NCBI GenBank assembly: GCA_040235515.1
Contig: JBECKX010000090.1
Span: 1-14,799, forward strand
Source of the DNA: Candidatus Zixiibacteriota bacterium
GTDB lineage: Bacteria > Zixibacteria > MSB-5A5 > CAIYYT01
Direction: 5' to 3'
Length of the DNA stretch: 14,799 nucleotides
The notes beneath the pieces are model-generated. The model worked only from the letters and a program-made list of their open reading frames with translations, ran no database searches and was not told the origin of the DNA. Position 1 is the first letter of the stretch, and each line of letters opens with the position of its first letter. This document shows, in pieces, positions 1 through 14,799 of the stretch. The translations under genes were made by a program, and so were the position numbers.

Positions 1-363
1 CTCCACCCCCAGTCCCGACGGGTCGGCATCGACCGGAAAACGGTAGGTAAAGAGTTGAAAGATCTCCGGGTGACCGGTCACCGTCTCATCGGCCAGCGCC
101 ATCAGGCGACTGCGCAGATCACCCACCGATGGCATGGCGAAGGCGTCGCGCAGGACGCGCGAACTCCCACCGGAATCGAATGGGGTCACGATATGAATCG
201 AATTGTGCGTGTACTCCGCCAGGTGGCGGGAGAGCGGATTGAGAGCCGTCCCCCCCGAAAAGAAGAGCACCCGTGGCCCCACTTCAGGCGCACGATGATA
301 TCGAGCCAGCTTCAGTTCATCGGGGATTGAAACGGAATGAGTGACCCTGAGCATTGCTGACAT
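1..363 (-). CDS. CofD/YvcK(GlmR)-like protein of the GAK system, N-terminal part (3' end beyond the left window edge)
   Basis: Not in the ORF track. Manual translation of the minus strand from ATG 363 is open to base 1: MSAMLRVTHSVSIPDELKLARYHRAPEVGPRVLFFSGGTALNPLSRHLAEYTHNSIHIVTPFDSGGSSRVLRDAFAMPSVGDLRSRLMALADETVTGHPEIFQLFTYRF... The FSGGTA, TPFDSGGSS and PSVGDLR motifs match the GGGTG, DxGGSSG and PGDxR motifs of CofD/YvcK. An alternative start is ATG 354, which has AGAGAG 9 nt upstream. Confidence 0.88.
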   Translation of the reverse strand, partial: MSAMLRVTHSVSIPDELKLARYHRAPEVGPRVLFFSGGTALNPLSRHLAEYTHNSIHIVTPFDSGGSSRVLRDAFAMPSVGDLRSRLMALADETVTGHPEIFQLFTYRFPVDADPSGLGVE

Positions 364-407
364 CTCTCTATTCTTTCGATTCCTGTAACCCGGGGGCTGC
401 CCGCTAG

Positions 408-1529
408 CTATACTTCCGAATCGACTTCCGTATCGGCGCGGTCGCCTTGCAGGAGACGCATACAGAAGCTCGCAGCTTTCTCGAAGTTAACTCCGCCACT
501 CAACTCAAACGCCGCAGCCACAGGCAACAGTTCAAGATAGCAATCCTCATCGAACTCCTCCCTGACGCCGGCTGTGGCCCTGTAAAACAAACCTGGCTGC
601 TTCATGATTGCACCCAGCAGATCGCGCCGCCGCTGAAGATCGACTCGCTGCGCAGTAAGCGCTCTGCTGTCTCGTTGCCAATTCAGCAGTATGATGACGT
701 CGAGCGAAGTCCGCAGCACGAACCGATCCTCCCCATACACATCATCAATAATCACATCATACTTTTGCTCCAGTTCCCACAACTCATCGGGGGGGATCGC
801 CGCGAGCGCCTTCCGCTTTTCGGCAGGCATGACTTCCGCCAGCTCTGCATTATTCAACACCGTGCCCGGGTTCACGCGCGGATGCTTGGCGATCCCGAAC
901 ATCTCAAGCTTTCCCGTATCTCCCGCTGAGCGGATCACCAGTCGATCGTTCGACACAAACCGACAACCGCGATTCATCAACTGCAGCGCTAGCGTCGATT
1001 TGCCCATCCCCGAGAAGCCGGCTATTGCCATACCTCTGCCGTTCAATTCCACGCCGGCGGCATGCGCCAGTAGCCCGCCGTGCTGTAACTGCCACTCGAT
1101 GTAACGATTGTTAATGAAATTTATCACCTGATTGCTGTTCGCCAGACAGGGGCCAAACGCCAGGTTGAGATCATTTGCCATCGCGAAAATCACGCCGGTA
1201 AGGCGCTTTCTTACCAATCGACCATCAGCGAAATCGAAATACTCCTCCTTGATCTTCGACTTTCCCGGATCAGGCTGCTTGATCGTCCAGTCAAGCTCAA
1301 GGTCGGCGGCGGGCATTTCAATCGCCAGCACTTCGAGACCCGGGTCACCAGCTTTCCCGACGAATCCACCGAAATACTCCTTCAGCGACGCGATCAGTTC
1401 CGGCGAATTGCTCGCGACTCGAATCGCGAACTCCTCATCAAAGGCCACATCGAGGGAGACGTTACAGTCGACCTCCGCAAGCATGCTCGCCGCAATCTCG
1501 CGAACACTCTTCATCATAGTCAGTCTCAT
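408..1529 (-). CDS. HprK-related kinase B (P-loop kinase, GAK system)
   Basis: LAHAAGV precedes the Walker A motif GFSGMGKSTL, followed by FVSNDR (HprK-type LxxDD position) and HPRVNPGT. ATG 1529 overlaps the upstream stop as ATGA (1526-1529). ATG 1517/1514 and GTG 1538 are alternative starts. Confidence 0.85.
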   Translation of the reverse strand: MRLTMMKSVREIAASMLAEVDCNVSLDVAFDEEFAIRVASNSPELIASLKEYFGGFVGKAGDPGLEVLAIEMPAADLELDWTIKQPDPGKSKIKEEYFDFADGRLVRKRLTGVIFAMANDLNLAFGPCLANSNQVINFINNRYIEWQLQHGGLLAHAAGVELNGRGMAIAGFSGMGKSTLALQLMNRGCRFVSNDRLVIRSAGDTGKLEMFGIAKHPRVNPGTVLNNAELAEVMPAEKRKALAAIPPDELWELEQKYDVIIDDVYGEDRFVLRTSLDVIILLNWQRDSRALTAQRVDLQRRRDLLGAIMKQPGLFYRATAGVREEFDEDCYLELLPVAAAFELSGGVNFEKAASFCMRLLQGDRADTEVDSEV

Positions 1530-2431
1530 CCCCTGCACCGCATTTGTTTGACTACATAACGGGTATATAGTTCAGCCGCATGAATGTTGTTAGCGGCTTT
1601 AAGTCCACGGAATCCACCGAATGCGGACACTTCGAAGACAACCGGTTCCTTCTCGGTGAGGGCAATATCGACACAGGTGAAGTCCAGCTGGAACAGGCTC
1701 TGCGCCCTGCGGGCCAGTTCGATAATCTCGGCGCTCGGTTCGAATGGCTCATATTTTCCGCCATGATGAATCGTCGTGTTCCAGGTACCCCCCCCACTGA
1801 CCCGAGCGTAGGTCGCCAGATACTCTCCACCTAAGAAAGCCAGCCCGAGATCACGGCCGTTGAGTTGCACCTTCTGTTGCACATAGATCATCGGATTGCC
1901 GTCGGCCCGGAATGCCTCTATCGTTTGCTGCAAATCTCCATCCTCCGCCGACACCAGCACCATTCCGCGCGCCTTCGACGAATAGAGTGGCTTCAAGATC
2001 GCTTTTCCATAGCGCTTGACTGCGTCGACGGCAACTGCGACATCCTCAGTCACGACAGTGGCCGGCATCGGAATTCCCCCGGCCTGCAGGGTCAATGTGC
2101 CTGCCAGTCTGTTGATAGCCAGCGCCAGCGATTCGGGGCGCGAGAATATCCTCACCCCGCGCCGCTCGAGGAAGCGCAGGATTTCAAGCCTGTCGAGAAG
2201 CTGAGGCGAATAGGTGCGCCCCATCTTCTTTACGATGATCGCGTCGAGTTCCAGCAGGTTTGTACCATCGCATTCAACCGTACCGCGCGCGAGGTCCGCC
2301 GAGATCCGATCCATATCGATCAACACCCCAAAGCCCGTCTCGCGCTCCACTGAAGCAGTCAACTGCTGTGAGGACCAACCCTCCTCGACTCCGATCACGC
2401 CAATCCGCAACGTACCACCACTATCATTCAT
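1526..2431 (-). CDS. RimK/LysX-like ATP-grasp ligase (GAK system)
   Basis: ATP-grasp motifs ILKPLYSSKARGM, YVQQKV, WNTTIHHGG, FTCVDI and VFEVSAFGGF are present. ATG 2431 (MNDSGGTLRIGVIG, 301 aa) is preferred over the ORF-track start at 2551, which overlaps the upstream gene. GGAAAGCGGA lies 9 nt upstream of 2431. Confidence 0.88.
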   Translation of the reverse strand: MNDSGGTLRIGVIGVEEGWSSQQLTASVERETGFGVLIDMDRISADLARGTVECDGTNLLELDAIIVKKMGRTYSPQLLDRLEILRFLERRGVRIFSRPESLALAINRLAGTLTLQAGGIPMPATVVTEDVAVAVDAVKRYGKAILKPLYSSKARGMVLVSAEDGDLQQTIEAFRADGNPMIYVQQKVQLNGRDLGLAFLGGEYLATYARVSGGGTWNTTIHHGGKYEPFEPSAEIIELARRAQSLFQLDFTCVDIALTEKEPVVFEVSAFGGFRGLKAANNIHAAELYTRYVVKQMRCRG

Positions 2432-2508
2432 GTTGATTGTTCCGCTTTCCATGCGTGAGGTAACTTCCATACACTCGCGTGCCGCGATACACGCCGGCCC
2501 GACTCGAG

Positions 2509-4146
2509 TCAATATACGAGCGCCTGTTGAGGCATCCTGAACTGGTTCCACGGTTTGCTCTCGTGATCCAGCATTTTCTCCAGCAGGAATGTTGCGCGCA
2601 TATACATCGACTTGGCGAAATCCTCTTCCAGTTCAAAACGGGTCGAAGTCGCGAATGAACGTATCAGTCCGAGAGTAAGCCGGGCCTCGAATGTGTCATC
2701 GTTGCTCGAAGCGGCATACCCGCGCGCGAATCTCAGCAACTCATTGATCGCCCAATTCACCAGTGCGCGACGATCATTCTGCAGGATCGGCAGCCGGTAC
2801 GCGGACACGATAAACACCGAGATATCCTGAACATAGTCCATATTGCGCGAACGATGGAGATCAATGTAGTGAACTCGCTTCTCCTTATGATCGAAAATCA
2901 CGTTGTCGACATTGAAATCGCCGTGGATGAAAACCGAAAACGGCGCGCTCATCTGCTCTTCGAGATGTATGGCACGTTCGAGCAACTCCTCGAATGAAGG
3001 TGCCTCCAGCGATCCGATCTGATTCATCGGGAGACGGTAATCGGGATGCACCTTCAGCACATCCTCGATCCGCGCCTTGAGCTGGGCGAAAAAGCCGGCA
3101 TTCACACTCTCTTCCGTGCGGGTTTTTTCCCAGGTCTGCGTGAGCGTCGCTTCCAGTGACTGCATCGCTTCCTTCAGCAGCGCTCCCCGGTTTTTCAGCA
3201 GCATGTCCTTTATCGTATTGCCGGGGAAGAATTCCAGCAGCAGCGACCCGTTGTCGCCATGCTTCTGGAATCCGAAAATCTTCGGCGCTATCCCCGGAAT
3301 GATCTCCTGCCAGCGCTCGATATTCTCTTTCTCCTCCTGGAGCTTGCGTAGCTTTCCCTCCTTGAAAATCGCTGCGCCGGCGCTGTCACCACCCTTGCCC
3401 TTGACACGCGCGATCCGGCAGCCCGAACGCGTTTCCCATATCGATTCGAGGTCAAGATCGGAAACCGACCCCGCCAGATGGGCGCCCTCGAGCGATTCCT
3501 CCAGCGCCTCGAATTGATGTATCTTGAGTTTTTCCCCCACCGCGGCCGAGATGATCGCTTCCCCGATATTGAGCAGGCAATCGCCGATTCGTTCGAGATA
3601 GCGAAAGATGAATATTGCAGTTACGTAGTCTTCCGGTTGGTCGGTTCGACGCAATTCGTCGAGCAGACCCCGAAAGGTCTCTTCATACAACGCGTCAACT
3701 TCGGTTTCCGATTTGCAGATCTCGAGCGCAACCTGTATGTCGCGGCTGAAGACAGCTCCCTGAATCCTGTCATAGGCCTTCAGGATAACGTCGAATGTTG
3801 GCTTAATACTGAATTTTTGGAAGATGTTGGCAGATTTGAGGTACTTGGTCTGACCCACGAGGTTGTTGGCGAAGTCCGCGATACGCTCCAGATTGCTGGT
3901 GATCACGATTACCGACTTCATCAGGTCGACTGTTACCGTGTCATTCCCGCTTACGGTGAATATCAGCGAGAAACACTTGCTCTCGATAACCCCCTTGAGG
4001 TTATCGATGTAATCATCCCGAGCATCGAGCGTCTCCGCCGGCACACTTCCCGGTTCGGTGAGTACCCGCTGCGCATCCTGTAACTGAGATCGAACTTCCA
4101 GAATCAGAAATCGGAAATTGTCTTCAATCTCTTTCCGAGTCAGCAA
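2509..4146 (-). CDS. PhoU-domain / aminoglycoside-phosphotransferase(APH)/choline-kinase-like fusion protein
   Basis: The N-terminal ~200 aa carry two PhoU repeats with the D/E-x-x-x-D motifs DDYID, ERIAD, ETEVD and ERIGD. The C-terminal kinase-like fold has AIFKEG (Lys), LLLEF (hinge), FIHGDFNVDN (catalytic loop) and YIDL. The start is TTG 4146: an in-frame TAG lies two codons upstream, and AGGT precedes it. Confidence 0.88.
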   Translation of the reverse strand: MLTRKEIEDNFRFLILEVRSQLQDAQRVLTEPGSVPAETLDARDDYIDNLKGVIESKCFSLIFTVSGNDTVTVDLMKSVIVITSNLERIADFANNLVGQTKYLKSANIFQKFSIKPTFDVILKAYDRIQGAVFSRDIQVALEICKSETEVDALYEETFRGLLDELRRTDQPEDYVTAIFIFRYLERIGDCLLNIGEAIISAAVGEKLKIHQFEALEESLEGAHLAGSVSDLDLESIWETRSGCRIARVKGKGGDSAGAAIFKEGKLRKLQEEKENIERWQEIIPGIAPKIFGFQKHGDNGSLLLEFFPGNTIKDMLLKNRGALLKEAMQSLEATLTQTWEKTRTEESVNAGFFAQLKARIEDVLKVHPDYRLPMNQIGSLEAPSFEELLERAIHLEEQMSAPFSVFIHGDFNVDNVIFDHKEKRVHYIDLHRSRNMDYVQDISVFIVSAYRLPILQNDRRALVNWAINELLRFARGYAASSNDDTFEARLTLGLIRSFATSTRFELEEDFAKSMYMRATFLLEKMLDHESKPWNQFRMPQQALVY

Positions 4147-4214
4147 TCGCTACCTGAGCCTTTCAACAAAGCAGTCTCAAACAAAGTATGAATATCAGCT
4201 CCATTCACTCCACG

Positions 4215-4499
4215 CTAGCTCTTCTGGGAATCGATCACCAGTGGCTTAGCGTCAATCTGCTCGGAAACATCCTCCTCTTTCCAGGAGACCTTGATCGACA
4301 GCTTGATCCTGTCATCTTTGCGGCGCGCCTTCAGGTCAAGCTTCAGCAGACCGGTCGGCTCAAGCACTATCGGATCTCCACCATTCGCCAACTGCAAATG
4401 GCCGTTCTCGAAGCCCTCGGTCAGGGCCTTCAGGTACTTCACTATCGACTCGCAGTCCTGCAATGACTCGTGCCGAAATTCTCCCGACTCTCTTGCCAT
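4215..4499 (-). CDS. amphi-Trp domain protein (GAK system)
   Basis: 94 aa with an N-terminal amphipathic helix (ESIVKYLKALTEGF), then beta-strands ending in the family-naming Trp (KLSIKVSW). GGAGG RBS is 10 nt upstream. The gene context matches GAK loci. Confidence 0.85.
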   Translation of the reverse strand: MARESGEFRHESLQDCESIVKYLKALTEGFENGHLQLANGGDPIVLEPTGLLKLDLKARRKDDRIKLSIKVSWKEEDVSEQIDAKPLVIDSQKS

Positions 4500-4522
4500 A
4501 AGAAACGTTCCTCCGTGGTAGA

Positions 4523-5683
4523 CTACTGTAATCTGCTCTTGTATTCCGAAATCGCTCTCCGGCGGTCGACGCCGGCAAAGATCAGACTCTTTCTGATTGC
4601 CAGGTCATCCCAGGCAGGCTGCACGCCGATCTCGCGTGAGGCCTTCTCCCGGTCCTGAAAACGCGGCTCTTTAACCTTCTCTCCCATATGGCAGTCGTCG
4701 CCCATCGTGATCAGCAGCGGTCTGCCCCGGCGTTGCGAAGTCTCATTCTGGCGATTGACGACATTGATCAGAAACTCGGTGTACTCCTGCGATTGCGGGT
4801 TCCAGACCTCGTAGCCGTCGACATCATATCCTGCCAGCAGGATAGGCCAGAATTGTTCGGGATGCGGAATGATGATTCCTCCCCCCAGTGACCTGATCTC
4901 TTCTATGAATTCATTGACCTCATAAAAGTGACTGAGCGAGAACTGGCGCTTCACGATCTCCTTGACCGCTTTCAGAAAGATCTGTGCACGGCCAATGGTG
5001 CGATCGTCGCAGATGTCGCGCAGGGCGTCGAAGTAGTTTCTGATCAGCTTGTTGCGCAGCATCTCCTTCGGAGTCTCGTTATAGTGAAGCTCGACCAGCT
5101 TGCGGAGCTTGTGTGTGCCTGTCCTGACAAATTCCACCAGCACGTCGTTGGCGCCGGTCGATGCTGCCGCTTCATTCAGGCGATCCTCATAACGACTGTC
5201 GAGGATCGTATCGAAGTATTCATCGAGCTGTCCAGAGCGGTACTTGAAGGTATGATCGAGCATCTTCTTGAAGACATCAGCATCCGCGACTCGTTCCTCC
5301 TTGAAGTGAACCAGGAACTGCACCTTGCGGTGAAACGCCTTCGCGTAGCAATCAATCTCCACACCGGCATACCCGTTGTAGCACTCGAGTCGATTGTGTT
5401 GTGTGGGAATGATCAGTTCAAGATCGCTGTTAGGAAAACTTGCCGCCACCCTCCTGGTGATCAACTCCATCGGGACAAATTCCGGGTGCCAGTGAATCGC
5501 CAGGATCGCGTCCTGGTCAAAATGCACACGTGGTGGCTCAACTATCCGCTTCTGCTGATCCGGCGACAGATCAACCGTCACCAGTCGCAGGTAGGCGTCG
5601 TGGTCAAAGTCGGTGATCTCCTCCGTGAGCACCGCCCCCTGGAAACCCGGATTATCTAATTTTCGCGCTTTGGATGATTCCAT
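4523..5683 (-). CDS. Divergent PHP-family (polymerase/histidinol phosphatase) metallo-phosphoesterase-like protein
   Basis: PHP motifs occur in the correct order: H64-W-H66 (HxH), PTQH96N (cf. ITDHN), GVE109I, IIPH274P (cf. AHP), DGYE292V, and MGDD330CH332 (cf. GSDxH). It is the first gene of the operon. Confidence 0.68.
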   Translation of the reverse strand: MESSKARKLDNPGFQGAVLTEEITDFDHDAYLRLVTVDLSPDQQKRIVEPPRVHFDQDAILAIHWHPEFVPMELITRRVAASFPNSDLELIIPTQHNRLECYNGYAGVEIDCYAKAFHRKVQFLVHFKEERVADADVFKKMLDHTFKYRSGQLDEYFDTILDSRYEDRLNEAAASTGANDVLVEFVRTGTHKLRKLVELHYNETPKEMLRNKLIRNYFDALRDICDDRTIGRAQIFLKAVKEIVKRQFSLSHFYEVNEFIEEIRSLGGGIIIPHPEQFWPILLAGYDVDGYEVWNPQSQEYTEFLINVVNRQNETSQRRGRPLLITMGDDCHMGEKVKEPRFQDREKASREIGVQPAWDDLAIRKSLIFAGVDRRRAISEYKSRLQ

Positions 5684-5837
5684 GCCTGAATTTTGTCCTT
5701 ATGCAATTGGTACGCAGGAAGAGCGCAATATACGTAGGATTGTCAATTTAGCCCAAGCGGGCCGTGAGTGTCCAGTTAGAAATTCATTAGGATTATGTTA
5801 AACGCAGGTCTTTGACCCGGCTAAAGTTTTTGCTCTT

Positions 5838-5984: not shown

Positions 5985-7286
5985 ATGAGAAACAGAACCA
6001 GGATGCGCAGCATCCTAAGCCTTGCTCTGATAACATCCGCTCTGGCAGCCCTGCTGCTTGCCGGGTGCTCACAGAGCAATCTGAGTCAGGGCAGAAAAGC
6101 CCTCGACGATGGCCGCTATGATGCGGCTGAGACCTATCTAAAATCCGCATTGCAGGAGAATCCGAACGATCCTCGTGTTCTCAAGGCGCTCGGTCGCCTG
6201 CAGTATCATCAGGGCTCGATCGCGGAAGCCAAGCAAAATCTTACGATCGCCCAGCGGTCGCTCCCTGCGGATCCGCAACTAAACCTCTATCTGGGATTCT
6301 GCTCCGAGGCCCAGGGTGATTTTGCCACAGCCGCGAATGCCTATGAGCAGTTCCTCGAGCGCAACCCCAAGTCACGGGTAGCGGACAACGTGCGGGGACG
6401 GTTGCTCTATGTCAAGAATGAGCGCCTTCGGAAACAAGTCGCCGAGGCGGTGAAGGCGGAAGCCACACTCGGTCAGGCTGAGCCGCAACCGTTGACCGTG
6501 GCAGTGCTTCCATTCGTCGTGGCCGCAGATGCCACCCCGCAGGTGAAAGCCCTCGCGGATGGACTCGCCGCCACCCTCTGGTACGATCTGGCATCAATCG
6601 AGGAACTCACCGTCGTCGAGCGTCTCCAGGTCAACTACCTGATGCAGGAACTCCAGCTCACGCAGGAGGGCCTGACTTCGGAAGAATCAGCACCGCGGGT
6701 CGGCAAAATAGTCAGCGCGGCACATCTGGTGAACGCCAGTGTCAACGCCCCCGCCGAGGACAAGCTCTCACTCGATGCGGCACTAGTAATGACCACCACG
6801 TCAGAGTATAAGCCTGCCTATAATGCCGACAACGACCTGAAGAAAGCTCTCGAACTTGAGAAGAATATGACGCTGGCGATCCTCGACTCGCTCGGCATCG
6901 AGATCAAGGGTAGTCGGCGAAAAGCCCTGCTCGATCAGCCCACCGACTCGTATGAGGCCTTCCTCGCTTTCAGCCAGGGAATCAAACTCTACGATCAGGG
7001 TAACTACGTGGATGCAAAGAAGTTCTTCGATGAAGCCCGCAGTATCGACCCCCGCTTCGGATTGGCCGGTCAGTTCGCTTCCGAAACTCAGCTTCTGATC
7101 AGCAACGCCGGAGACTTGCAGCAATTCGACAGCATGGTAATGGCGAGCATCGAAGCCACCACGCAGGTCATTACCAGCCTTACCGATGAATTGCGCGCCA
7201 TCGGCGCGCCTGATACGAACCCGCGCGTCGAGGATGAACCCTCCGAGGGTCGCTCTACCGCTACGGTCTCCGGGGAGGTGCGCTAA
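5985..7286 (+). CDS. Lipoprotein with N-terminal TPR repeats, central CsgG/HfaB/TolB-N-like alpha/beta domain and C-terminal TPR
   Basis: Lipobox LLAG-C28. TPR signatures include GRYDAAETYLKSALQENPND, LGRLQYHQGSIAEAKQNL and GDFATAANAYEQFLERNP. The central TVAVLPF...LTVVER...LMQELQL...APRVGKIVSAAHLVNAS is typical of CsgG/TolB-N-like domains. A further TPR follows (EAFLAFSQG...AKKFFDEARSIDPRF). Confidence 0.8.
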   Translation: MRNRTRMRSILSLALITSALAALLLAGCSQSNLSQGRKALDDGRYDAAETYLKSALQENPNDPRVLKALGRLQYHQGSIAEAKQNLTIAQRSLPADPQLNLYLGFCSEAQGDFATAANAYEQFLERNPKSRVADNVRGRLLYVKNERLRKQVAEAVKAEATLGQAEPQPLTVAVLPFVVAADATPQVKALADGLAATLWYDLASIEELTVVERLQVNYLMQELQLTQEGLTSEESAPRVGKIVSAAHLVNASVNAPAEDKLSLDAALVMTTTSEYKPAYNADNDLKKALELEKNMTLAILDSLGIEIKGSRRKALLDQPTDSYEAFLAFSQGIKLYDQGNYVDAKKFFDEARSIDPRFGLAGQFASETQLLISNAGDLQQFDSMVMASIEATTQVITSLTDELRAIGAPDTNPRVEDEPSEGRSTATVSGEVR

Positions 7287-8473
7287 TGAAGCCTTTGAAT
7301 AGAACCATCACGCTGCTGCTTATCCTCAGCCTCGCGCTGATGGCAGTTGCAACCAATGCCGACGCGGCAAGGAAAGAGTCAACCCGTGGAAGCATCTATT
7401 TCCTTTACAACGGCTGGAGCACGGAGTACACCGGCCTGGGTGACTTTGACATCAAACAGACCGTGTTCGGGCTAAATACGGTGCTGATGCCCTCGGAAAG
7501 CTTCCGCCTCCAGATCGATGGCAAGCTCTCCGGCAACTCCGCCAAGGGACAGGCTACTTTTCTCGGGATGCAGGGCGACGCAGATGTCTCCTTCTCCTCG
7601 ATCAATGATACGCGCGTCAAGGCGACCTTCTTCTCCGCCAATCAGGCCACCGCGCTGAGTATCTACGCCGGCCTGCCAACCGGCAAAACGGAACTCTCGC
7701 TGGAGCAATATGCGATTGTCACCCTGCTCTCCGATGCCTCACGCAAATACATCGTGCGTCGCGTCGGACAGGGGCTCGATCTGGGCGGTGAAGGGTTGTT
7801 GCTGCCACACTTTGGCGATGTCACGCTGCAACTTGGTGGAGCCTTCTTCTATCGCGGACCATACCGTGCCCGCGAGATTGACACCGAGGATTACAAGTAC
7901 GGCAATGAAGTGCATGGTATCGGTGGCTTCGATTATGATGGGCGCCAGGTAGACTTCAGCGGGAACGTGACCGTCATTTACTATTTCAAAGACAAGTATG
8001 GCGATGAGGAAATCTACCAGTCCGGCATCACCCAGATCTACCAGGTGAATGTTCAGTACACCGATATGTTCAGCCTCTTCGCCGGCGGCAATTTCCTGAT
8101 TCGCGGCGCTGCCAAGCTCCCGAATGAACAGGGCGGCGACTTCATCGAAGAGCAACTCAACTCCGGACGCAATGAGATGCTGATCTATGGCGGCGGGTCA
8201 TATCCCGTCACGCCGGAGTTAAGCGTTCTTGCGCAGCTTGAGTTGAAGTCGATGAGCGAAAATGAGTATCCGCAGAATTCGTTCCTCTATCGTCCCGGTT
8301 CCAGCTACGTGGGCCTCAGCGGCGGCGCCGGTTATCGGCTGACCGAGGTTGTCGGGATCAGCGGTATGCTCAGTTACTATAGTGGATCGATCGATGGTCA
8401 GGCCGGCGTGATCCCCGACGCCGATCTCTCAGGATTCGGCGCTACCATCGTCATGACAGTGAGGGCTCAGTAA
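7286..8473 (+). CDS. Predicted outer-membrane beta-barrel protein (possibly COG4313/MetA-pathway phenol-degradation-like channel)
   Basis: Sec signal peptide (A25-D-A27 cleavage site). Many alternating Gly/aromatic amphipathic strands (LQLGGAFFYR, VHGIGGFDY, YVGLSGGAGY, ISGMLSYY). The GLPTGK...GQGLD pattern resembles COG4313 barrels. It overlaps both neighbours by TAATG. Confidence 0.65.
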   Translation: MKPLNRTITLLLILSLALMAVATNADAARKESTRGSIYFLYNGWSTEYTGLGDFDIKQTVFGLNTVLMPSESFRLQIDGKLSGNSAKGQATFLGMQGDADVSFSSINDTRVKATFFSANQATALSIYAGLPTGKTELSLEQYAIVTLLSDASRKYIVRRVGQGLDLGGEGLLLPHFGDVTLQLGGAFFYRGPYRAREIDTEDYKYGNEVHGIGGFDYDGRQVDFSGNVTVIYYFKDKYGDEEIYQSGITQIYQVNVQYTDMFSLFAGGNFLIRGAAKLPNEQGGDFIEEQLNSGRNEMLIYGGGSYPVTPELSVLAQLELKSMSENEYPQNSFLYRPGSSYVGLSGGAGYRLTEVVGISGMLSYYSGSIDGQAGVIPDADLSGFGATIVMTVRAQ

Positions 8474-8496
8474 TGATGAACACTATGATGAATACG
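8473..8496 (+). repeat. Imperfect 12-bp tandem duplication at gene start (MMNT-MMNT)
   Basis: ATGATGAACACT followed by ATGATGAATACG. Confidence 0.6.
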
Positions 8497-10068
8497 AAGA
8501 AGTCCTCGCTCACAGCCGCAGTTATCGCCCTGTTGCTGTTGACGCTGCTTATGACGCTGTTGCTCAGTTGTTCCAGCAAGCCGACTGCGGGCTCGGAGCG
8601 AGTCGACACCAGCTTGAGTATCACGATCCCCAAAAGTTCGCTGGTAGATCGCATCGACCTGATTCGCCTCCAGATCATCGTGGAAGACGAAGTCGTCGAC
8701 GAGCGTGAGACTCAACTGGTGGATGGCCGTTTCGACTTCGGCACGATTTCGATCCCGACCGGGCAGGTGATTTTCGTCGTTGAGGCAATCGAGAATTCCA
8801 TAGCCGACGCACCGGAGCATGTGCTCTACGCCAATACCGCCATCATTGAGGTGGAACCGGGTGATGAGGTCACTGTGCCTATTACCTTGCTTCCCGCCGT
8901 CCCGATGGTGAAGCTGACACCCTACCACGACCAAGCGACTTCGCAAACGCTTTACAGCACGACAATCGAGCTGTGGCGCATTGGAAGCTTCAATAACGGC
9001 ATCTTCCGAATCGCCTACGACACCGACCACTTCCAGTTCGCCAACGCGGTGCAGGCCAACTCTGCCTGGGGCACCCTCGATATCCTGGCGGATTTTGAAG
9101 CCGGTGAAGTGTTTCTTGATGTCAACCGCCCCCTTGGACTAGAGACGATCCCCGTTACCACCGAACTGGTGCGCGTAAACTTCAATGTCCTCGATGCAGG
9201 CACTGCTACGCTCGACCTCTCTGTTGATGCCATGTCGAACAACAGTGGCATTATCCCGGAGTTGGTTGCAGGAGTACTCTTCGTCGATGATGCAACGGTC
9301 GTGATCTCCGCCGAGGGCAGCAGCGGCAACATGCAGGGCACTGTGGTCAACGCCAGCAATAATAATCCGATCCCGAATGCGGATGTCACGCTGAGCGGGC
9401 CGGTATCACGTCAGGCGACCACCAACGCGCTCGGCCAGTTCAGCTTTACGGACTTGCCGTTTGGCACCTACCAGTTGCACGTGGTCGCAGATGGTTTCAT
9501 CTCCCGCACCAGCACTCAAGTCGTCGATGAACTCGACGAGCAGGTGACCGTCGCGCTCTCCACGCAACTCGGTGAAGGTGAGTTCAGGATCATTCTTTCC
9601 TGGAGCTCGCAACCGGAGGATATCGATGCTCACTACTATACCGTGGTTGACAACATCCTCTTCTCTGTCGATTACGTGAATACGGGCTCGGCTGATCAGC
9701 TCCCCTACGCGGTCCTCGATGTGGATGACCAGGATGGTTTCGGGCCGGAGACGATCACGGTTTACGATCTGGTTGGACCGGCCGCCTTCGCAGTTCACAA
9801 CTATGATCAGGATGCCGGCGGTACAGCGACCTTCGCACAATCGCAGGCAAAGGTCGAGGTTTACTCGGGCAGTTCCCTGCTGCAGACATTCACCGTTTCA
9901 CCTTCGGCAACGCAACTGTGGTGGTATGTGTTCAATCTGTCTCAGAGCGGTACAATAACGACCGTGAACACCTATTCTGACTCACCACCCAGCTTTGCCT
10001 TCAAGGTTGGGGAGTTTGTCCCCGAGACCCCGTTGATGCCCAAGCGCGTAGCGGGAATGCTGAAGTAA
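8473..10068 (+). CDS. Multidomain lipoprotein: Ig-like, cohesin-like, carboxypeptidase-regulatory-like and YfaP/DUF2135-like domains
   Basis: Lipobox LLS-C33. Aa ~145-279 look cohesin-like (FRIAYDTDHFQF...ELVRVNFNVLDAGTATLDL). Aa ~285-363 look CarboxypepD_reg-like (GTVVNA...PIPNADV...TTNALGQFSFTDLPFGTYQL...GF). Aa ~369-500 look YfaP/DUF2135-like (RIILSW...DIDAH...LDVDDQDGFGPETIT...VHNY...AKVEVY). Confidence 0.72.
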   Translation: MMNTMMNTKKSSLTAAVIALLLLTLLMTLLLSCSSKPTAGSERVDTSLSITIPKSSLVDRIDLIRLQIIVEDEVVDERETQLVDGRFDFGTISIPTGQVIFVVEAIENSIADAPEHVLYANTAIIEVEPGDEVTVPITLLPAVPMVKLTPYHDQATSQTLYSTTIELWRIGSFNNGIFRIAYDTDHFQFANAVQANSAWGTLDILADFEAGEVFLDVNRPLGLETIPVTTELVRVNFNVLDAGTATLDLSVDAMSNNSGIIPELVAGVLFVDDATVVISAEGSSGNMQGTVVNASNNNPIPNADVTLSGPVSRQATTNALGQFSFTDLPFGTYQLHVVADGFISRTSTQVVDELDEQVTVALSTQLGEGEFRIILSWSSQPEDIDAHYYTVVDNILFSVDYVNTGSADQLPYAVLDVDDQDGFGPETITVYDLVGPAAFAVHNYDQDAGGTATFAQSQAKVEVYSGSSLLQTFTVSPSATQLWWYVFNLSQSGTITTVNTYSDSPPSFAFKVGEFVPETPLMPKRVAGMLK

Positions 10069-10171: not shown

Positions 10172-10209
10172 ACCGCTGGTCTTAGACCGCTAGTCTTAGA
10201 CCGCTAGTC
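10172..10209. repeat. 14-bp tandem repeat, 2.7 copies, overlapping the rmuC stop codon
   Basis: ACCGCTGGTCTTAG (10172-10185), ACCGCTAGTCTTAG (10186-10199), ACCGCTAGTC (10200-10209). Confidence 0.85.
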
Positions 10210-11466
10210 ATCACGATCAGAGAGGCGACTCTCCTCAAGCAGAGGCAACTCGCCATCATCGCCATCCACAGGCTCCCCTGCCTCGACACCCATTCCCTTC
10301 TGGGTGCGTAAGTCCTCGATGCGGTTCAACACTTTCTCCAATTGTCGACTTCTCGTACCGGCAACCTCCTCGTAGCCACGGTGCGCCGTCTCGATCTGAC
10401 GGCCCAGCTTAGCCAATCCTTCACAGAACTTGCCCCACTGTTTCTGGAACTCACCGTACAATTCGACCATCTTATGAGAGGTTCTTTCCAGGGCGAAGTT
10501 ATCGGCTGCCTGACGAATCACCGCAAGAATCGCATAGAGGGTAAGGGGAGAACAGAGGATCACGCGACTCTCCAGCGCCCGGTCGATAAGGCTTGCGTCG
10601 TGTTCGTGGACGAAGGCATAGACCTGTTCATTGGGTATGAACATCAGAGCATAAGCCAGTGTATTTTGCTGCGGATTGATGTACTCGCGCTTCGAAACCG
10701 CCTTGATGTGGTTCTTTATATCCTGAACGAAGGCTGAGGTCAGTTGGTTTCTCTGGTCTTCCGACTCAGCTTCCAGGTAGCGCAGATAATTGTCCAGCGG
10801 GAACTTCACATCCATGTTCAGGACCTGTCCCTGAGGAAGCGGGAAGGTGAAATCAGGTCTGGTTCCGGCCCCTTCAATCGTCTTCTGTTTTTCGTAGTTG
10901 ACTCCCTCGATGAAACCTGCCAGCCTGAGCACATCCTCCGCCATGCGTTCTCCCCATTGGCCACGTGCCTTGGTAGAAGCGAGAGCTTCCCGCAACGATG
11001 AGGCAGTTTGCATCAATTGCTGAACCTGCTGTTGTTGCGATTCAAGATTGCTGCTGAGTTGTCCGAACTTCTCGGAACGATCCTTCTCAAGCGCTGTCAT
11101 CAGCTTCTGCACTTTGTCCAGTTCGGCGTTCATATTCTGCAACTGCTGGTCAATCAGGGTTTTCTTCGACTCAAGCTCTTTCGCAGAGATCTCGCGGTCG
11201 GAATCAAGCAAGGTCTTACGCACCTTCATGAATTCGTCGCTGGCCTTCGAGAGCACTTCGTTCGAGATATTGCCGAAGCTCAATTTTAGATGCTCCGTCA
11301 GCGCCGCCAGGTCCTTCTCGCGCCTTGCTTCTGCATCCTGCGCCATCTGTTCCGCCAGCGCAGCTGCTTCGCGCTGCTGACGCGACTTCAGCAGCCACGT
11401 GATTGCCACCCCCAGCAGAAATCCAACTACGAATGTGATTATGGCAATGAGCAATCCGCTCTCCAT
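10204..11466 (-). CDS. rmuC: DNA recombination protein RmuC
   Basis: N-terminal TM anchor, coiled coil, RGQWGE, RPD...DVKFPL (PD-(D/E)xK fold), ALMFIPNE and SPLTL. Strong AAGGAGG RBS. Confidence 0.93.
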   Translation of the reverse strand: MESGLLIAIITFVVGFLLGVAITWLLKSRQQREAAALAEQMAQDAEARREKDLAALTEHLKLSFGNISNEVLSKASDEFMKVRKTLLDSDREISAKELESKKTLIDQQLQNMNAELDKVQKLMTALEKDRSEKFGQLSSNLESQQQQVQQLMQTASSLREALASTKARGQWGERMAEDVLRLAGFIEGVNYEKQKTIEGAGTRPDFTFPLPQGQVLNMDVKFPLDNYLRYLEAESEDQRNQLTSAFVQDIKNHIKAVSKREYINPQQNTLAYALMFIPNEQVYAFVHEHDASLIDRALESRVILCSPLTLYAILAVIRQAADNFALERTSHKMVELYGEFQKQWGKFCEGLAKLGRQIETAHRGYEEVAGTRSRQLEKVLNRIEDLRTQKGMGVEAGEPVDGDDGELPLLEESRLSDRDD

Positions 11467-11485
11467 TCAATCCTCCTTGAGGGAA

Positions 11486-11515
11486 GATATAACTCCCCGA
11501 CTTCCCCCTCGTCAA
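11486..11515 (-). promoter_or_regulatory. Candidate sigma70-type promoter for rmuC
   Basis: On the minus strand, TTGACG(11515-11510)-N18-TATATC(11491-11486) lies about 20 nt upstream of the rmuC ATG. Confidence 0.4.
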
Positions 11516-11582
11516 GCTACATCTGACTATGAAACGACCCGGGTTATGACAATCGCTTTTTGATTTCAGGTTTGACGACAGG

Positions 11583-12344
11583 TTACGACTTGAGGAACCG
11601 ATTGAGTGATTCCTTGAATTGCGAGCGCTCGATGCCGCGCCGGAGCGTGCCCTCGTAGGCAATCGAGATATCCCCGGTCTCCTCGCTGACCACGATACAG
11701 ATTGCGTCCGATTCCTCGGTGATACCAACCGCGGCTTTGTGGCGCATCCCATACTCGCTCATGTAAACGGGATTCTGCGAAAGGGGTAGCATGCATCCGG
11801 CAGCGATTACGCTGTCGCCGCGAATGATTATCGCACCGTCATGCAATGGCGTGTAAGGAGTGAAGATCGTGGTAATCATCTCCGCCGAGACGGTAGTATT
11901 GATCATCTTGCCCGATTGCACGAAGTCCTTCAACCCCACCGTCCGCTCGATCACGATCAGCGCGCCATGGTTTAACACCGACAGGCGCAGAACCGCCTTG
12001 GCGATCTCGTCCACGCTCGCACCCTCTTCACCCCGATAGAAATATCGCACGATTCGAGAGTGTCCGATCCGCGCCAGCGCACCGCGAATCTCCGGCTGGA
12101 ACAGGATCACCAGCACGATGAATCCAACCGTTGCCAGGTTGGTGAATAGCCACATCAAACCCTGAAGCTGGAACCAGTAGGCGAAGAAGGCGATCACGAA
12201 GAGCAGCGTCAACCCCGTGATCATCTGCGCTGCCCGCGTCCCCTTCAGTAGCGTGAAGAACTTATAAAAGATATAGGCCACGACCACGACATCGATCAGG
12301 TCGAGCAGCGAGAACTTCAAGAATTCAAAGCTAAACAGCTCCAT
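11583..12344 (-). CDS. cdaA: Diadenylate cyclase CdaA (DacA)
   Basis: Three N-terminal TM helices, VILFQPEIR, GALIVIER, TPLHDGAIII, GMRHKAAVGITE and IVVSEETGDIS. TGATG overlap with folP. Confidence 0.93.
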   Translation of the reverse strand: MELFSFEFLKFSLLDLIDVVVVAYIFYKFFTLLKGTRAAQMITGLTLLFVIAFFAYWFQLQGLMWLFTNLATVGFIVLVILFQPEIRGALARIGHSRIVRYFYRGEEGASVDEIAKAVLRLSVLNHGALIVIERTVGLKDFVQSGKMINTTVSAEMITTIFTPYTPLHDGAIIIRGDSVIAAGCMLPLSQNPVYMSEYGMRHKAAVGITEESDAICIVVSEETGDISIAYEGTLRRGIERSQFKESLNRFLKS

Positions 12345-13201
12345 CAGTCCTCCAGCCTCAGTCGCACCGCGATATCCACTGCCTGACGGGTTGCGGCGAC
12401 ATCATGTACGCGAACCGCAACCGCACCATACAACACAGCCGCGACAGCCACCGCCACCGACCCTGCCACTCTGTTCTCGACCGTAGCGCCAGTAATCTTT
12501 CCGATGAATCCTTTGCGCGACGCGCCGATCAGAATCGGGTAACCGGAGCGGGCAAACCGCCCGACCGCTTTCACCAATTCGAGGTTCCCTTCAACATCCT
12601 TGCCGAATCCGATTCCCGGATCAAGCATAATTCTCTCTTTCGCGACACCGGCCGCAATCGCTCGGGCCGCTGCCGCAGCAAGGTAACCGTCAACTTCTTC
12701 AATCAAGTTACCATATTCGGTGTTGAGTTGCATCTCCTTCGGCGTGCCGCGTTTGTGCATCAGGATGGCACCGGCTCGATGCTCAGCTATCACACTCGCC
12801 ATCTCCGGATCACCCTCAAGTGCGGTGATATCATTGACGATTGCGCAGCCTGCAGCCAGTGCCGCCGCTGCAACCGGTGCTTTCCAGGTGTCGATGGAAA
12901 CAGGGATGGCGAGCTTGCCGGTCAGCTGCTCGACGACCGGCAGGATGCGCTCCAGTTCCTCTTGCTCCGAAACCGGTTCTGATCCCGGACGGGAGGATTC
13001 CCCGCCGATATCGATAACGTCCGCGCCTTCCGCCTCCAGCCGCAATGCCTGCTGCACAGCGTCGGATGTAGCCAGATAACGCCCACCGTCGGAAAAAGAA
13101 TCGGGAGTGACGTTAATCACTCCCATAACAATAGTCTTGGATTTTCTCGCGAAGAGACTCGCTACATCAAACTTTGATCCTACCTGCGTACCTGAACTCA
13201 T
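12344..13201 (-). CDS. folP: Dihydropteroate synthase
   Basis: [47 protein letters not shown] and RVHDV. ATGA overlap with the ftsH stop. Confidence 0.96.
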
Positions 13202-14799
13202 GTTTTCTCGGTTGGATTGACCGGTGTCTTGTCGAGTTTATCGCCCTTCAAGATAACATCGATCTCCTCACTGTCAAGAATCTCATGCTCAAGCAATGCT
13301 GTCGCCAGCAGATGGAGCTTATCGAGGTTCGCCTGCAGCAACTCCTCGGCGTGGTTGTATGCGGTCTCCACGATGTTGCGAACGGCATCATCGATCTGCT
13401 GTGCCGTCTTCTCGGAGTAGTCGCGATGCTGCTGAATTTCGCGGCCCAGGAAGACCTCCTCCCGCGACTTGCCGAAGGTCAACGGACCCAACTCCTCATT
13501 CATGCCCCAGGAGCAGACCATCTTGCGCGCAAGGTCGGTAGCCCGTTCGATATCATTGCCCGCGCCGGTGGTAAGCTGGTCAAAAACCAATTTCTCGGCG
13601 GCACGGCCACCCATGAGATAAACAAGCTTGGTCTCCAGGTAAACCTTGCTGTAAGTGTGCTTCTCCTCCACCGGCAGGAAGCTGGTTACACCGAGCGCCA
13701 ACCCACGCGGGATAATAGTCACTTTATAGACCGGGTCAGCCTTGGGCAACAGCTTGCCGACCAGGGCGTGCCCTGCTTCGTGGTAGGCTGTCGTCCGCTT
13801 CTCCTCCTCGGATATCACGAGCGAACGGCGTTCGGCACCCATCATAACCTTATCTTTGGCCATCTCGAAATCGACCATCGAAACCTTATCGGCGTTTCGG
13901 CGAGCCGCCAGCAGCGCTGCCTCGTTGACCACGTTGGCCAGGTCCGCGCCGGACAACCCCGGAGTACCCCTTGCGATCAGTTCGGCATTTACTGAATCAG
14001 AAACATTGATCTTGCGCATATGAACCTTGAGGATTCCCTCCCGGCCTTTGACGTCAGGCAGGTTTACTACGATCTGGCGGTCAAAGCGTCCGGGCCTGAG
14101 CAACGCCGGATCAAGCACATCGGGTCGGTTGGTCGCCGCGATCAGGATAACGCCCTCGTTGGACTCGAAGCCATCCATCTCAACGAGCAACTGGTTGAGC
14201 GTCTGCTCGCGCTCGTCGTGTCCACCACCAAGCCCCGCGCCACGCAGGCGTCCGACGGCATCGATTTCATCTATGAAAATAATGCAAGGGGCATTCTTCT
14301 TGCCCTGATCAAACAGGTCACGCACACGCGAGGCACCCACGCCAACGAACATCTCCACAAAGTCTGAGCCTGACATCGAGAAGAACGGCACCCCGGCCTC
14401 ACCCGCGATCGCGCGAGCGAGCAACGTCTTACCGGTTCCGGGGGGGCCGACTAGCAAGGCTCCCTTAGGGATCTTGCCGCCCAGTTTCTGGAACTTGCCC
14501 GGCTCCTTCAAAAACTCGATGATCTCCGCCAACTCTTCTTTCGCTTCATCAGCACCAGCAACGTCGTTGAACGTCACCTTCGGGCGGTCCTCGGTCAACA
14601 ACTTGGCTTTCGATTTTCCGAATGAGAATAATCCCTTCGGGCCGCCACCCTGCATCTGCCGCATGATGAATACCCATAGCAGGATAATCAGCAGAAATGG
14701 CGCTAAAGTAATCAGGTACCCGACCCAGCCGTCATCCGACTTTTCAGCACGGATCTCGACTCCCTTCTCTTCCATCTTGTCGACGAGATCGGTGTCGGC
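13198..14799 (-). CDS. ftsH: ATP-dependent zinc metalloprotease FtsH (5' end beyond the right window edge)
   Basis: Second TM helix, Walker [16 protein letters not shown] pore loop, Walker [30 protein letters not shown] and zinc motif HEAGH. The frame stays open upstream of ATG 14775 to the edge (ADTDLVDKM), so that ATG is internal. Confidence 0.98.

Follow-up and report, generated by a model that had tools for sequence, protein, structure and literature searches.

The 14,799-nucleotide stretch of DNA analysed here (the window) is the complete contig C96 of the 3.59-Mb, 100%-complete assembly G000 of a Candidatus Zixiibacteriota bacterium (GCA_040235515.1, contig JBECKX010000090.1). It carries a GAK operon, a genuine and typical example of a widely conserved, named but uncharacterised gene system. 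We tentatively propose that the operon encodes a Pho-linked, PPK1-independent system that may store or buffer phosphate by making and degrading a poly(pyro)phosphorylated small molecule, which is likely a sugar, and we give this reading somewhat less than an even chance. A phosphate-rich product was suggested by the basic pockets of the kinases and the ATP-grasp enzyme, a seemingly interchangeable phosphate-removing (eraser) enzyme, predicted Pho control and near-exclusion with polyphosphate kinase (PPK1, gene ppk1). A small molecule, likely a sugar, was suggested by the sugar or nucleotide-sugar substrates of APH-type kinases and YvcK-type proteins and by the ATP-grasp folds of the eukaryotic inositol (pyro)phosphate kinases. 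With the promoter repeat, the exclusion of ppk1 and the modified site of the ATP-grasp enzyme, a system known by database names alone becomes a testable lead.

Membership of the GAK System

The operon begins with genes for a PHP-like protein, amphi-Trp protein A, a PhoU-kinase fusion, an ATP-grasp protein, HprK-related kinase B (HprK-B) and a CofD-like protein. In an NCBIfam search, three products of the window exceeded the cut-offs of GAK models, namely amphi-Trp A (TIGR04354, 77.9 bits, cut-off 31), the ATP-grasp protein (TIGR04356, 421.9 bits, cut-off 300) and HprK-B (TIGR04355, 473.7 bits, cut-off 200). The window fragment of the CofD-like protein covered only model positions 1-90 of TIGR04357 and scored 157 bits (cut-off 340), and the fragment on contig C159, which spans model positions 66-368, passed that cut-off with 391.8 bits. 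A second amphi-Trp protein (amphi-Trp B) encoded on C159 matched PF20068 with 29.7 bits (cut-off 27). The original prediction had assigned the locus to the TIGRFAM GAK system, and these profile searches of all six proteins confirmed it; the PHP-like protein alone gave no Pfam or NCBIfam match. Its statement that the system has no described function also held, as a literature search, with subscription journals and most supplements outside its scope, found no paper on it. For amphi-Trp, the literature search yielded one table row only. By annotation, no GAK genes were identified in the available parts of the fitness and DAP-chip data of PMC5193443, PMC10102598 and PMC3333781, where genes labelled 'hypothetical' could conceal them. 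The locus had the same gene order as many relatives within the NCBIfam GAK system (TIGR04354-TIGR04358) and differed from the system as modelled in its obligate PHP and PhoU-kinase genes, which have no dedicated model. The GAK ATP-grasp family comprised at least 4282 clusters at E<=1e-60, and Pseudodesulfovibrio and Maridesulfovibrio species were among the carriers.

Core and Accessory Genes

Related loci were anchored on the PHP gene and included some near-duplicates; 71 had enough downstream DNA and 47 gave a full view. It was observed that amphi-Trp A and the PhoU-kinase followed PHP in 66 of the 71 loci. The PHP and PhoU-kinase genes were thus conserved members of the system, and the genes were clustered rather than scattered in other genomes, as had been predicted. 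The full-view loci contained HprK-B in 40 cases, ATP-grasp in 38, amphi-Trp B in 33, CofD-like in 32 and XXXCH in 29. The XXXCH protein (TIGR04358) had no match in G000, nor did the control genomes give one, and its presence in 29 of 47 related loci indicated that it is optional. A minimal core of PHP, amphi-Trp and kinase with independent loss of the ATP-grasp, HprK-B and CofD-like genes was rejected: these genes were present elsewhere in five of five genomes, so their absence from a locus was not loss.

From one order, the 80 consecutive genomes G033-G112 (out of 251) comprised 46 PHP-positive and 34 PHP-negative ones. The ATP-grasp gene was found in 46/46 PHP-positive and 1/34 PHP-negative genomes, HprK-B in 33/46 and 0/34, and the CofD-like gene in 44/46 and 22/34; the CofD-like gene occurred without both PHP and ATP-grasp in 21 of the 80 genomes. 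These co-occurrence counts showed that the core consists of PHP and ATP-grasp, with the kinase and amphi-Trp A added from the loci, alongside HprK-B as a dependent accessory gene and a semi-independent CofD-like gene. Half of one order of sulfate reducers carried GAK. Elsewhere its distribution was patchy, with 8 of 121 genomes in the window's phylum and 4 of 101 in the class of G032. Pairwise-identity correlations between GAK genes (0.34-0.68) were not informative.

Link to Phosphate Regulation

The promoters of a phoB-like gene and of a porin-pstSCAB-phoU cluster on contig C44 of the same assembly share a YTAAC repeat with an 11-bp period, and they likely define the PHO box of this lineage. 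We used a matrix trained on seven half-sites only, all from these promoters. The operon repeat (5769-5801), which lies 86-118 nucleotides upstream of the PHP start codon, ranked 1st of 417 three-repeat sites genome-wide (3.59 Mb) and 4th of 1119 two-repeat sites, where it was the top non-training site. Similar repeats were found upstream of the operon in the genomes G001 and G029. We infer from these patterns that the repeat is a predicted PHO box linking the operon to the Pho regulon, and the unit reaches upstream to it. In a wider comparison, 21 of 82 related upstream regions reached p<=0.05 against shuffles, and the 11-bp period was present in 24 of 76 non-redundant upstream regions, compared with 1-8 at periods 7-10 and 12-15. 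For a related order, the accessible text of PMC3333781 gives one experimentally mapped PHO box, (c/t)GT(n)AC. Repeats upstream of several GAK loci resemble this box. A scan for sigma-70 promoters upstream gave one weak site, at chance level.

The gene neighbourhoods pointed in the same direction. When coordinates were compared by hand, pstB lay within 5 kb upstream of PHP on the same strand in 8 of 46 PHP-positive genomes. Detached GAK modules adjoined pstB-phoU (L119), pstS (L124) and PiT/DUF47 (L137 and 10 CofD-only loci, which are probably one clade). The presence of pstB failed to separate GAK-positive (43/46) from GAK-negative (28/34) genomes. The earlier suggestion of a link to phosphate was supported by the promoter repeat and by the pst and PiT neighbours. 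On C44 (G000:C44:3961-14556), two genes labelled by inspection came after the phoB-phoR-porin-pstSCAB-phoU genes, one resembling a Na/Pi-cotransporter gene and one that is a further PhoU-like gene.

Near-Exclusion with Polyphosphate Kinase

We scored ppk1 with TIGR03705 in 240 of 250 sampled genomes of the order of G031, with PHP as the marker for G113-G272. Of the 122 PHP-positive genomes, 1 carried the gene, and its PHP was a divergent one; of the 118 PHP-negative genomes, 38 carried it. In the window's phylum, ppk1 was found in 0 of 8 ATP-grasp-positive and 19 of 113 other genomes, and in the class of G032 in 0 of 4 GAK-positive genomes and in 5 of 10 hand-picked, larger negative ones. The assembly G000 had no ppk1, and a crude scan gave no PPK2 Walker-A motif. 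These results indicated that GAK and ppk1 are near-exclusive, being rarely together in the genomes compared.

The ATP-Grasp and CofD-Like Proteins

The ATP-grasp protein shares with the RimK, LysX, MptN and CofF ligases the ATP-grasp fold and the ATP/Mg residues (here K147, Q185, D255 and E267), in a similarity range of 20-25% (E 1e-12 to 1e-22). It stayed below the ligase cut-offs of TIGR00768 (98/143 bits), NF040720 (152/350), TIGR02144 (81/276) and TIGR04443 (CofF; 31/300). In the accessible text of PMC10375531, the glutamate belt of RimK is formed by R8, R64, R96, R98, R102 and R189, and Arg189 is the acceptor-glutamate site beside the ATP gamma-phosphate. In the GAK enzyme, the equivalents of RimK R189, R211, N213 and N262 were G, N, T and S. 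The R-S-N loop had become N-T-T, the E-x-N motif (E-V-N in RimK) had become E-V-S, and both Gly at position 196 (= R189) and Ser at position 269 (= N262) were found in 54 of 55 sequences. No basic counterpart existed for R8, R98 and R102, R96 was kept in 34/55, and R64 corresponded to K69. The GAK enzyme further differed in extra basic residues (K68, R108, K153, R155 and R275). K68, K69, R108, K147, K153 and R210 were present in 55/55 sequences, R155 in 53/55 and R275 in 51/55. The missing Arg189 equivalent and the gained invariant basic residues make a glutamate ligase doubtful; the enzyme is probably not one, and the original label of amide-bond ligase was weakened. These basic residues, together with the Arg-rich lobe of the PhoU-kinase described below, would fit a polyanionic substrate.

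The CofD-like protein has a Pfam CofD match. Its best PDB matches were 2o2z, 2hzb and 2ppv (UPF0052/YvcK; E 1e-25 to 1e-23), and no CofD structure was among the 6 PDB matches at E<=1. Glycine-rich motifs are common to the protein, YvcK/GlmR (UPF0052) and CofD. It differs from YvcK/GlmR in an insertion of about 50 residues after the first domain and in having F-S-G-G-T-A and D-S-G-G-S-S for G-G-G-T-G and D-D-G-G-S-S; against TIGR01826, its fragment scored 45 vs 196 bits. No cof (F420) genes were among the recurring neighbours. The suggested analogy to CofD plus CofF in F420 synthesis was therefore weakened, since the CofD-like protein is nearest to YvcK/UPF0052, can occur without PHP and ATP-grasp, and has a partner far from CofF.

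These data bear on a biosynthetic explanation, in which a CofD-like transferase and an amino-acid-ligating ATP-grasp enzyme would jointly produce a cofactor or metabolite that is both phosphorylated and amino-acylated, either F420/methanopterin-like or on a LysW-like carrier. The glutamate and aminoadipate ligases (MptN at 152 bits, RimK and LysX) are indeed the nearest models and structures of the ATP-grasp protein, and the Pfam CofD match and the presence of the CofD-like gene in 44 of 46 PHP-positive genomes agree with such a pathway. The replacement of the four RimK residues speaks against it, as does a CofD-like protein nearer to YvcK and independent of ATP-grasp. In the LysX/LysW system, a small carrier has a conserved C-terminal Glu. 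The amphi-Trp proteins differ in this respect, with a C-terminal Glu in 12 of 93 amphi-Trp A and 11 of 39 amphi-Trp B sequences, and because their C-termini vary, there appears to be no LysW- or S6-like acceptor. We consider the biosynthetic explanation quite improbable.

Ten loci (L126-L129, L132-L136 and L140) carried the CofD-like gene without other GAK genes, in a yidC-jag-mnmE-exonuclease-CofD-RluA-DUF47-PiT neighbourhood, and 9 of 10 genomes of those loci were ppk1-positive in a by-eye count (G059 and G102 negative, G054 positive). These loci suggest that the CofD-like gene has a phosphate-related role of its own. In L120 and L121, a peroxiredoxin-like gene and a phosphate acetyltransferase gene stood between ATP-grasp/HprK-B and the CofD-like gene.

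Amphi-Trp Proteins, PhoU-Kinase and HprK-B

In amphi-Trp A, Ser12 was present in 91 of 93 and Trp73 in 92 of 93 sequences. Ser12 was the sole near-invariant hydroxyl residue, occurred in 3/3 alphaproteobacterial copies and was absent from amphi-Trp B. The amphi-Trp A model had a predicted local distance difference test (pLDDT) score of 84. A fold search gave Foldseek E>=0.97, a best Z of 2.8 and, in the atlas, the protein's own family only, which is no proof of a new fold. In the accessible part of PMC13490349, an amphi-Trp protein, of a GAK operon or not, was among the 20 most abundant proteins of Dissulfuribacter under one condition.

The 545-residue PhoU-kinase combines two PhoU repeats with an APH/EcKL kinase domain, all above Pfam cut-offs. 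Its catalytic residues K262, E272, H408-G-D410-x-N-x-x-N415 and D429 were invariant in 45/45 sequences, and so were R432, R451, R489, R496 and R503, which form an Arg-rich substrate lobe. HprK-B conserves H159, G-x-S-G-x-G-K-S-T and N197-D198-R199, and its nearest solved relatives were HprK/P (E 7e-7). It retains the His, the Walker A motif and the second Asp of the signature of HprK/P and the lasso-peptide kinases, and differs from HprK/P in N-D for D-D, in long unrelated N- and C-terminal parts and in its accessory place in GAK.

These features could also fit a reversible protein switch, in which the PhoU-kinase (and HprK-B) would (oligo)phosphorylate amphi-Trp A at Ser12 depending on the phosphate status, ATP-grasp would extend or modify the mark, PHP would erase it, and amphi-Trp would signal to Pst/PhoR or another target. 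The conservation of Ser12, alphaproteobacterial copies included, and the position of amphi-Trp A between PHP and the PhoU-kinase in the 66 loci favour this explanation, as does the calcineurin-like phosphoesterase that stands in for PHP in Rhodobacterales. It also agrees with the HprK family, whose targets are Ser residues in peptides or small proteins; HprK-like lasso-peptide kinases are described as adding several phosphates to a single Ser (PMC8498205, accessible text). The switch predicts neither the near-exclusion with ppk1 nor a role for the YvcK-like gene. In the model, Ser12 lies just before the main helix and may be structural, and amphi-Trp B lacks it. Moreover, APH-type kinases and PHP relatives act mostly on small molecules or nucleic-acid ends. 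The modification switch raised in the original prediction thus keeps some support from Ser12 but is not our favoured reading; we regard it as rather unlikely.

The PHP Protein and Interchangeable Erasers

Searches with the PHP sequence against PDB and Pfam found nothing, and no consistent Pfam family emerged among 120 members, out of 1541 homologues. The structure model (pLDDT 91) gave Foldseek matches to 3e0f, 3o0f and 9etk at E<=2e-4 and probability 1.00. In structural alignments, it reached Z 15.4 with 3o0f (root-mean-square deviation 3.6, 243 aligned) and Z 14.9 with RNase AM 9etk (root-mean-square deviation 3.3, 237 aligned), whereas non-PHP folds gave Z<7; the nearest structures were BAD_1165, RNase AM and CV1693. 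The residues H64, H66, H96, E109, H126, H274, E292, D329, D330 and H332 were invariant in 120/120 sequences. We take the metal-ligand motifs (HxH, H, E, H, HP, DxH) to follow the familiar PHP order, and the HP region alone was aligned directly. The model indicated that the first gene encodes a PHP-fold metallo-phosphoesterase of an unannotated family. This agrees with the earlier label 'PHP-like' and probable phosphoesterase, the fold being a modelled PHP barrel and the activity a predicted one. The protein resembles the RNase AM/TrpH/CV1693 branch of the PHP family in fold (Z about 15) and in a full set of His/Asp/Glu metal-ligand candidates, and differs in its 14-17% identity, a large helical insertion (residues about 130-250) and the missing Pfam PHP match.

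In the three Rhodobacterales plasmids examined, out of five matches, PHP was absent, and a histidine phosphatase and a calcineurin-like phosphoesterase were present. The same plasmids carried the same kinase, ATP-grasp, HprK-B and amphi-Trp genes, and one of the three had a Nudix gene. Judged from gene content, the eraser enzyme appears interchangeable among phosphatase families.

These observations bear on nucleotide or RNA end-processing or scavenging, in which PHP would play the part of RNase AM or of a 3',5'-nucleoside-bisphosphate phosphatase while the kinases and ATP-grasp heal or recycle ends. RNase AM (9etk) and 2yb1 were top structural neighbours of the PHP model, the Nudix gene of the plasmid variant could serve such a purpose, and L124 has an SNase gene between HprK-B and pstS. 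PHP shows next to no sequence similarity to E. coli RNase AM (HHalign probability 1.5%), it can be replaced by unrelated phosphatases, and no RNA-repair genes recurred among the neighbours. The ATP expense of two kinases would also be odd for scavenging. We judge end-processing very improbable.

In a divergent PHP class (L104 (G180), G193, G209, G257 and G258), the match falls into two parts near model position 135, where about 50 residues are inserted in frame. PHP genes without an adjoining PhoU-kinase occurred in L056, L057, L077, L078 and L103, alone or with XXXCH/amphi-like genes. A fusion of PHP with a GT4 glycosyltransferase was seen near the operon in six loci, including L007:2007-4397.

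Proposed Mechanism and Its Weighing

In the phosphate-store reading, the YvcK/CofD-like enzyme would yield a sugar-1-(di)phosphate from a nucleotide-sugar. Hydroxyls would be phosphorylated by the APH-type kinase under the control of its PhoU domain, which would sense phosphate. ATP-grasp may act as a kinase, as in ITPK1 and PPIP5K, adding further phosphates, and HprK-B would be an accessory that extends the product or regulates. For the abundant amphi-Trp proteins, we propose that they may bind the product, package it or hold the enzymes together, a stoichiometric role that fits the abundance in Dissulfuribacter. PHP, or its His-phosphatase, metallophosphoesterase or Nudix substitutes, would release phosphate. 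Induction by starvation could prime phosphate capture on refeeding, as described for Caulobacter ppk1 (PMC13250506, accessible part).

Several observations weigh against the phosphate-store reading. The nearest sequence relatives of the ATP-grasp protein are RimK, LysX and MptN, and no inositol kinase was among the 33 PDB matches of its profile. In the promoter analysis, 61 of the 82 related regions failed the repeat test, and 13 of 76 regions showed the 11-bp period on the reverse strand. Two of five further loci of the window's phylum lacked the site and one had it on the opposite strand. The PhoB-like protein was below its cut-off (257/296), and its box is itself predicted. The ppk1 contrast in the window's phylum alone gave P 0.24, and 80 of the 118 PHP-negative genomes had neither GAK nor ppk1. 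The Fisher P of 1e-12 overstates the contrast, as kin are not independent and the genomes with ppk1 may come from a few clades. Seven PHP marker matches in G113-G272 belonged to the divergent class, at least one of them without the kinase (L103). The ppk1 comparison covered hosts other than the alphaproteobacterial ones, which commonly carry ppk1. Moreover, induction by starvation would be more in keeping with scavenging than with storage, unless it prepares the cell for refeeding, and a small-molecule product leaves the conservation of Ser12 unaccounted for. The CofD-like gene is dispensable and not a dedicated step, as it is absent in 2 of 46 PHP-positive genomes and stands alone in 21 of 80.

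A functional parallel was eukaryotic inositol pyrophosphate metabolism (ITPK1, PPIP5K/Vip1, Nudix/DIPP), which likewise combines ATP-grasp kinases with His-phosphatase or Nudix erasers in phosphate homeostasis; PPIP5K couples the kinase with a His-phosphatase (PMC8024741, accessible text). GAK differs in giving no sequence match to these kinases and in having no conserved inositol genes nearby, so the parallel is one of analogy only. A more specific version is that GAK would build and degrade a bacterial poly-pyrophosphorylated sugar, a counterpart of inositol pyrophosphates. The candidate would be a granule of alpha-glucose 1,2,3,4,6-pentakis(diphosphate) replacing polyphosphate, and we consider this version unlikely. 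In it, UDP-glucose would be converted to the 1-diphosphate by the YvcK/CofD-like enzyme, the monoesters would come from the APH kinase and the pyrophosphates from ATP-grasp, with amphi-Trp as the coat. The electron-dense granules of Desulfovibrio gigas reportedly consist of this compound (Hensgens et al. 1996, Eur J Biochem). D. gigas was absent from the 120 homologues listed, which tells nothing either way, and a literature search on pentakis and D. gigas gave inositol papers only. The accessible part of the D. gigas genome paper (PMC4287179) had nothing on granules or GAK.

If the phosphate-store reading is true, GAK would be a second bacterial route to phosphate storage, with a bearing on the phosphorus cycle of anoxic sediments, and a possible prokaryotic analogue of inositol pyrophosphates. 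Surveys counting phosphate-accumulating organisms by ppk1 alone would then be affected.

Layout of the Locus

The features of the operon are listed in Table 1. Positions 1-5683 of the minus strand carried six open reading frames of the same orientation, with intergenic gaps of 23, 68, 77, -4 and 44 nucleotides from the first to the last gene. Their coordinates bore out the co-oriented, tightly spaced arrangement described originally. The reported ATGA overlap between the ATP-grasp and kinase genes is real if HprK-B starts at the ATG at 1529, a start that agrees with that of the orthologue from the same genus.

Table 1. Features of the GAK operon in the window.
Feature	Positions	Strand	Remarks
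PHP-fold metallo-phosphoesterase gene (predicted), unannotated family	4523..5683	-	386 aa; structure model and invariant ligands
Amphi-Trp protein A gene	4215..4499	-	94 aa; TIGR04354 above cut-off; F-x-x-E-S-x-Q-D motif with Ser12
PhoU-PhoU / APH-choline-kinase-like fusion gene	2509..4146	-	545 aa, TTG start; Pfam PhoU x2, APH, EcKL
GAK ATP-grasp gene	1526..2431	-	301 aa; TIGR04356; start taken from orthologue
HprK-related kinase B gene	408..1529	-	TIGR04355; ATG 1529 overlaps ATP-grasp stop (ATGA)
GAK CofD-like (YvcK/UPF0052-type) gene, 5' part	1..363	-	open at contig end
PHO-box-like triple direct repeat, YTAAY-type half-sites	5769..5801	-	half-sites start 5801, 5790, 5779; 11-bp period

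The start of contig C159 (G000:C159:3-1300) carried the remainder of the CofD-like gene, the second amphi-Trp gene and then an M4 peptidase gene. A same-genus genome has the unbroken order PHP, amphi-Trp A, PhoU-kinase, ATP-grasp, HprK-B, CofD-like, amphi-Trp B and M4 peptidase, and the same seven genes occurred in five further genomes of the window's phylum. Because C159 continues as the same-genus genome does, the operon likely consists of seven genes and runs from C96 onto C159. The facing ends of the two contigs overlap by 84 nucleotides, of which 44 are identical, and two contigs from independent sequencing runs ceased to match the window at base 80. Bases 1-80 therefore likely stem from another allele of the CofD-like gene, through a strain mix or a chimeric end.

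Divergent from the operon, positions 5985-10068 of the plus strand encode a TPR/CsgG-like lipoprotein, a 395-residue protein and a lipoprotein with a carboxypeptidase-regulatory-like domain. The 395-residue protein had no Pfam or NCBIfam match and resembles an outer-membrane barrel. This three-gene set was kept in G001, and its first two genes had look-alikes near the operon in L145. Positions 10204-14775 of the minus strand carry the housekeeping genes ftsH (5' end cut), folP, cdaA and rmuC.

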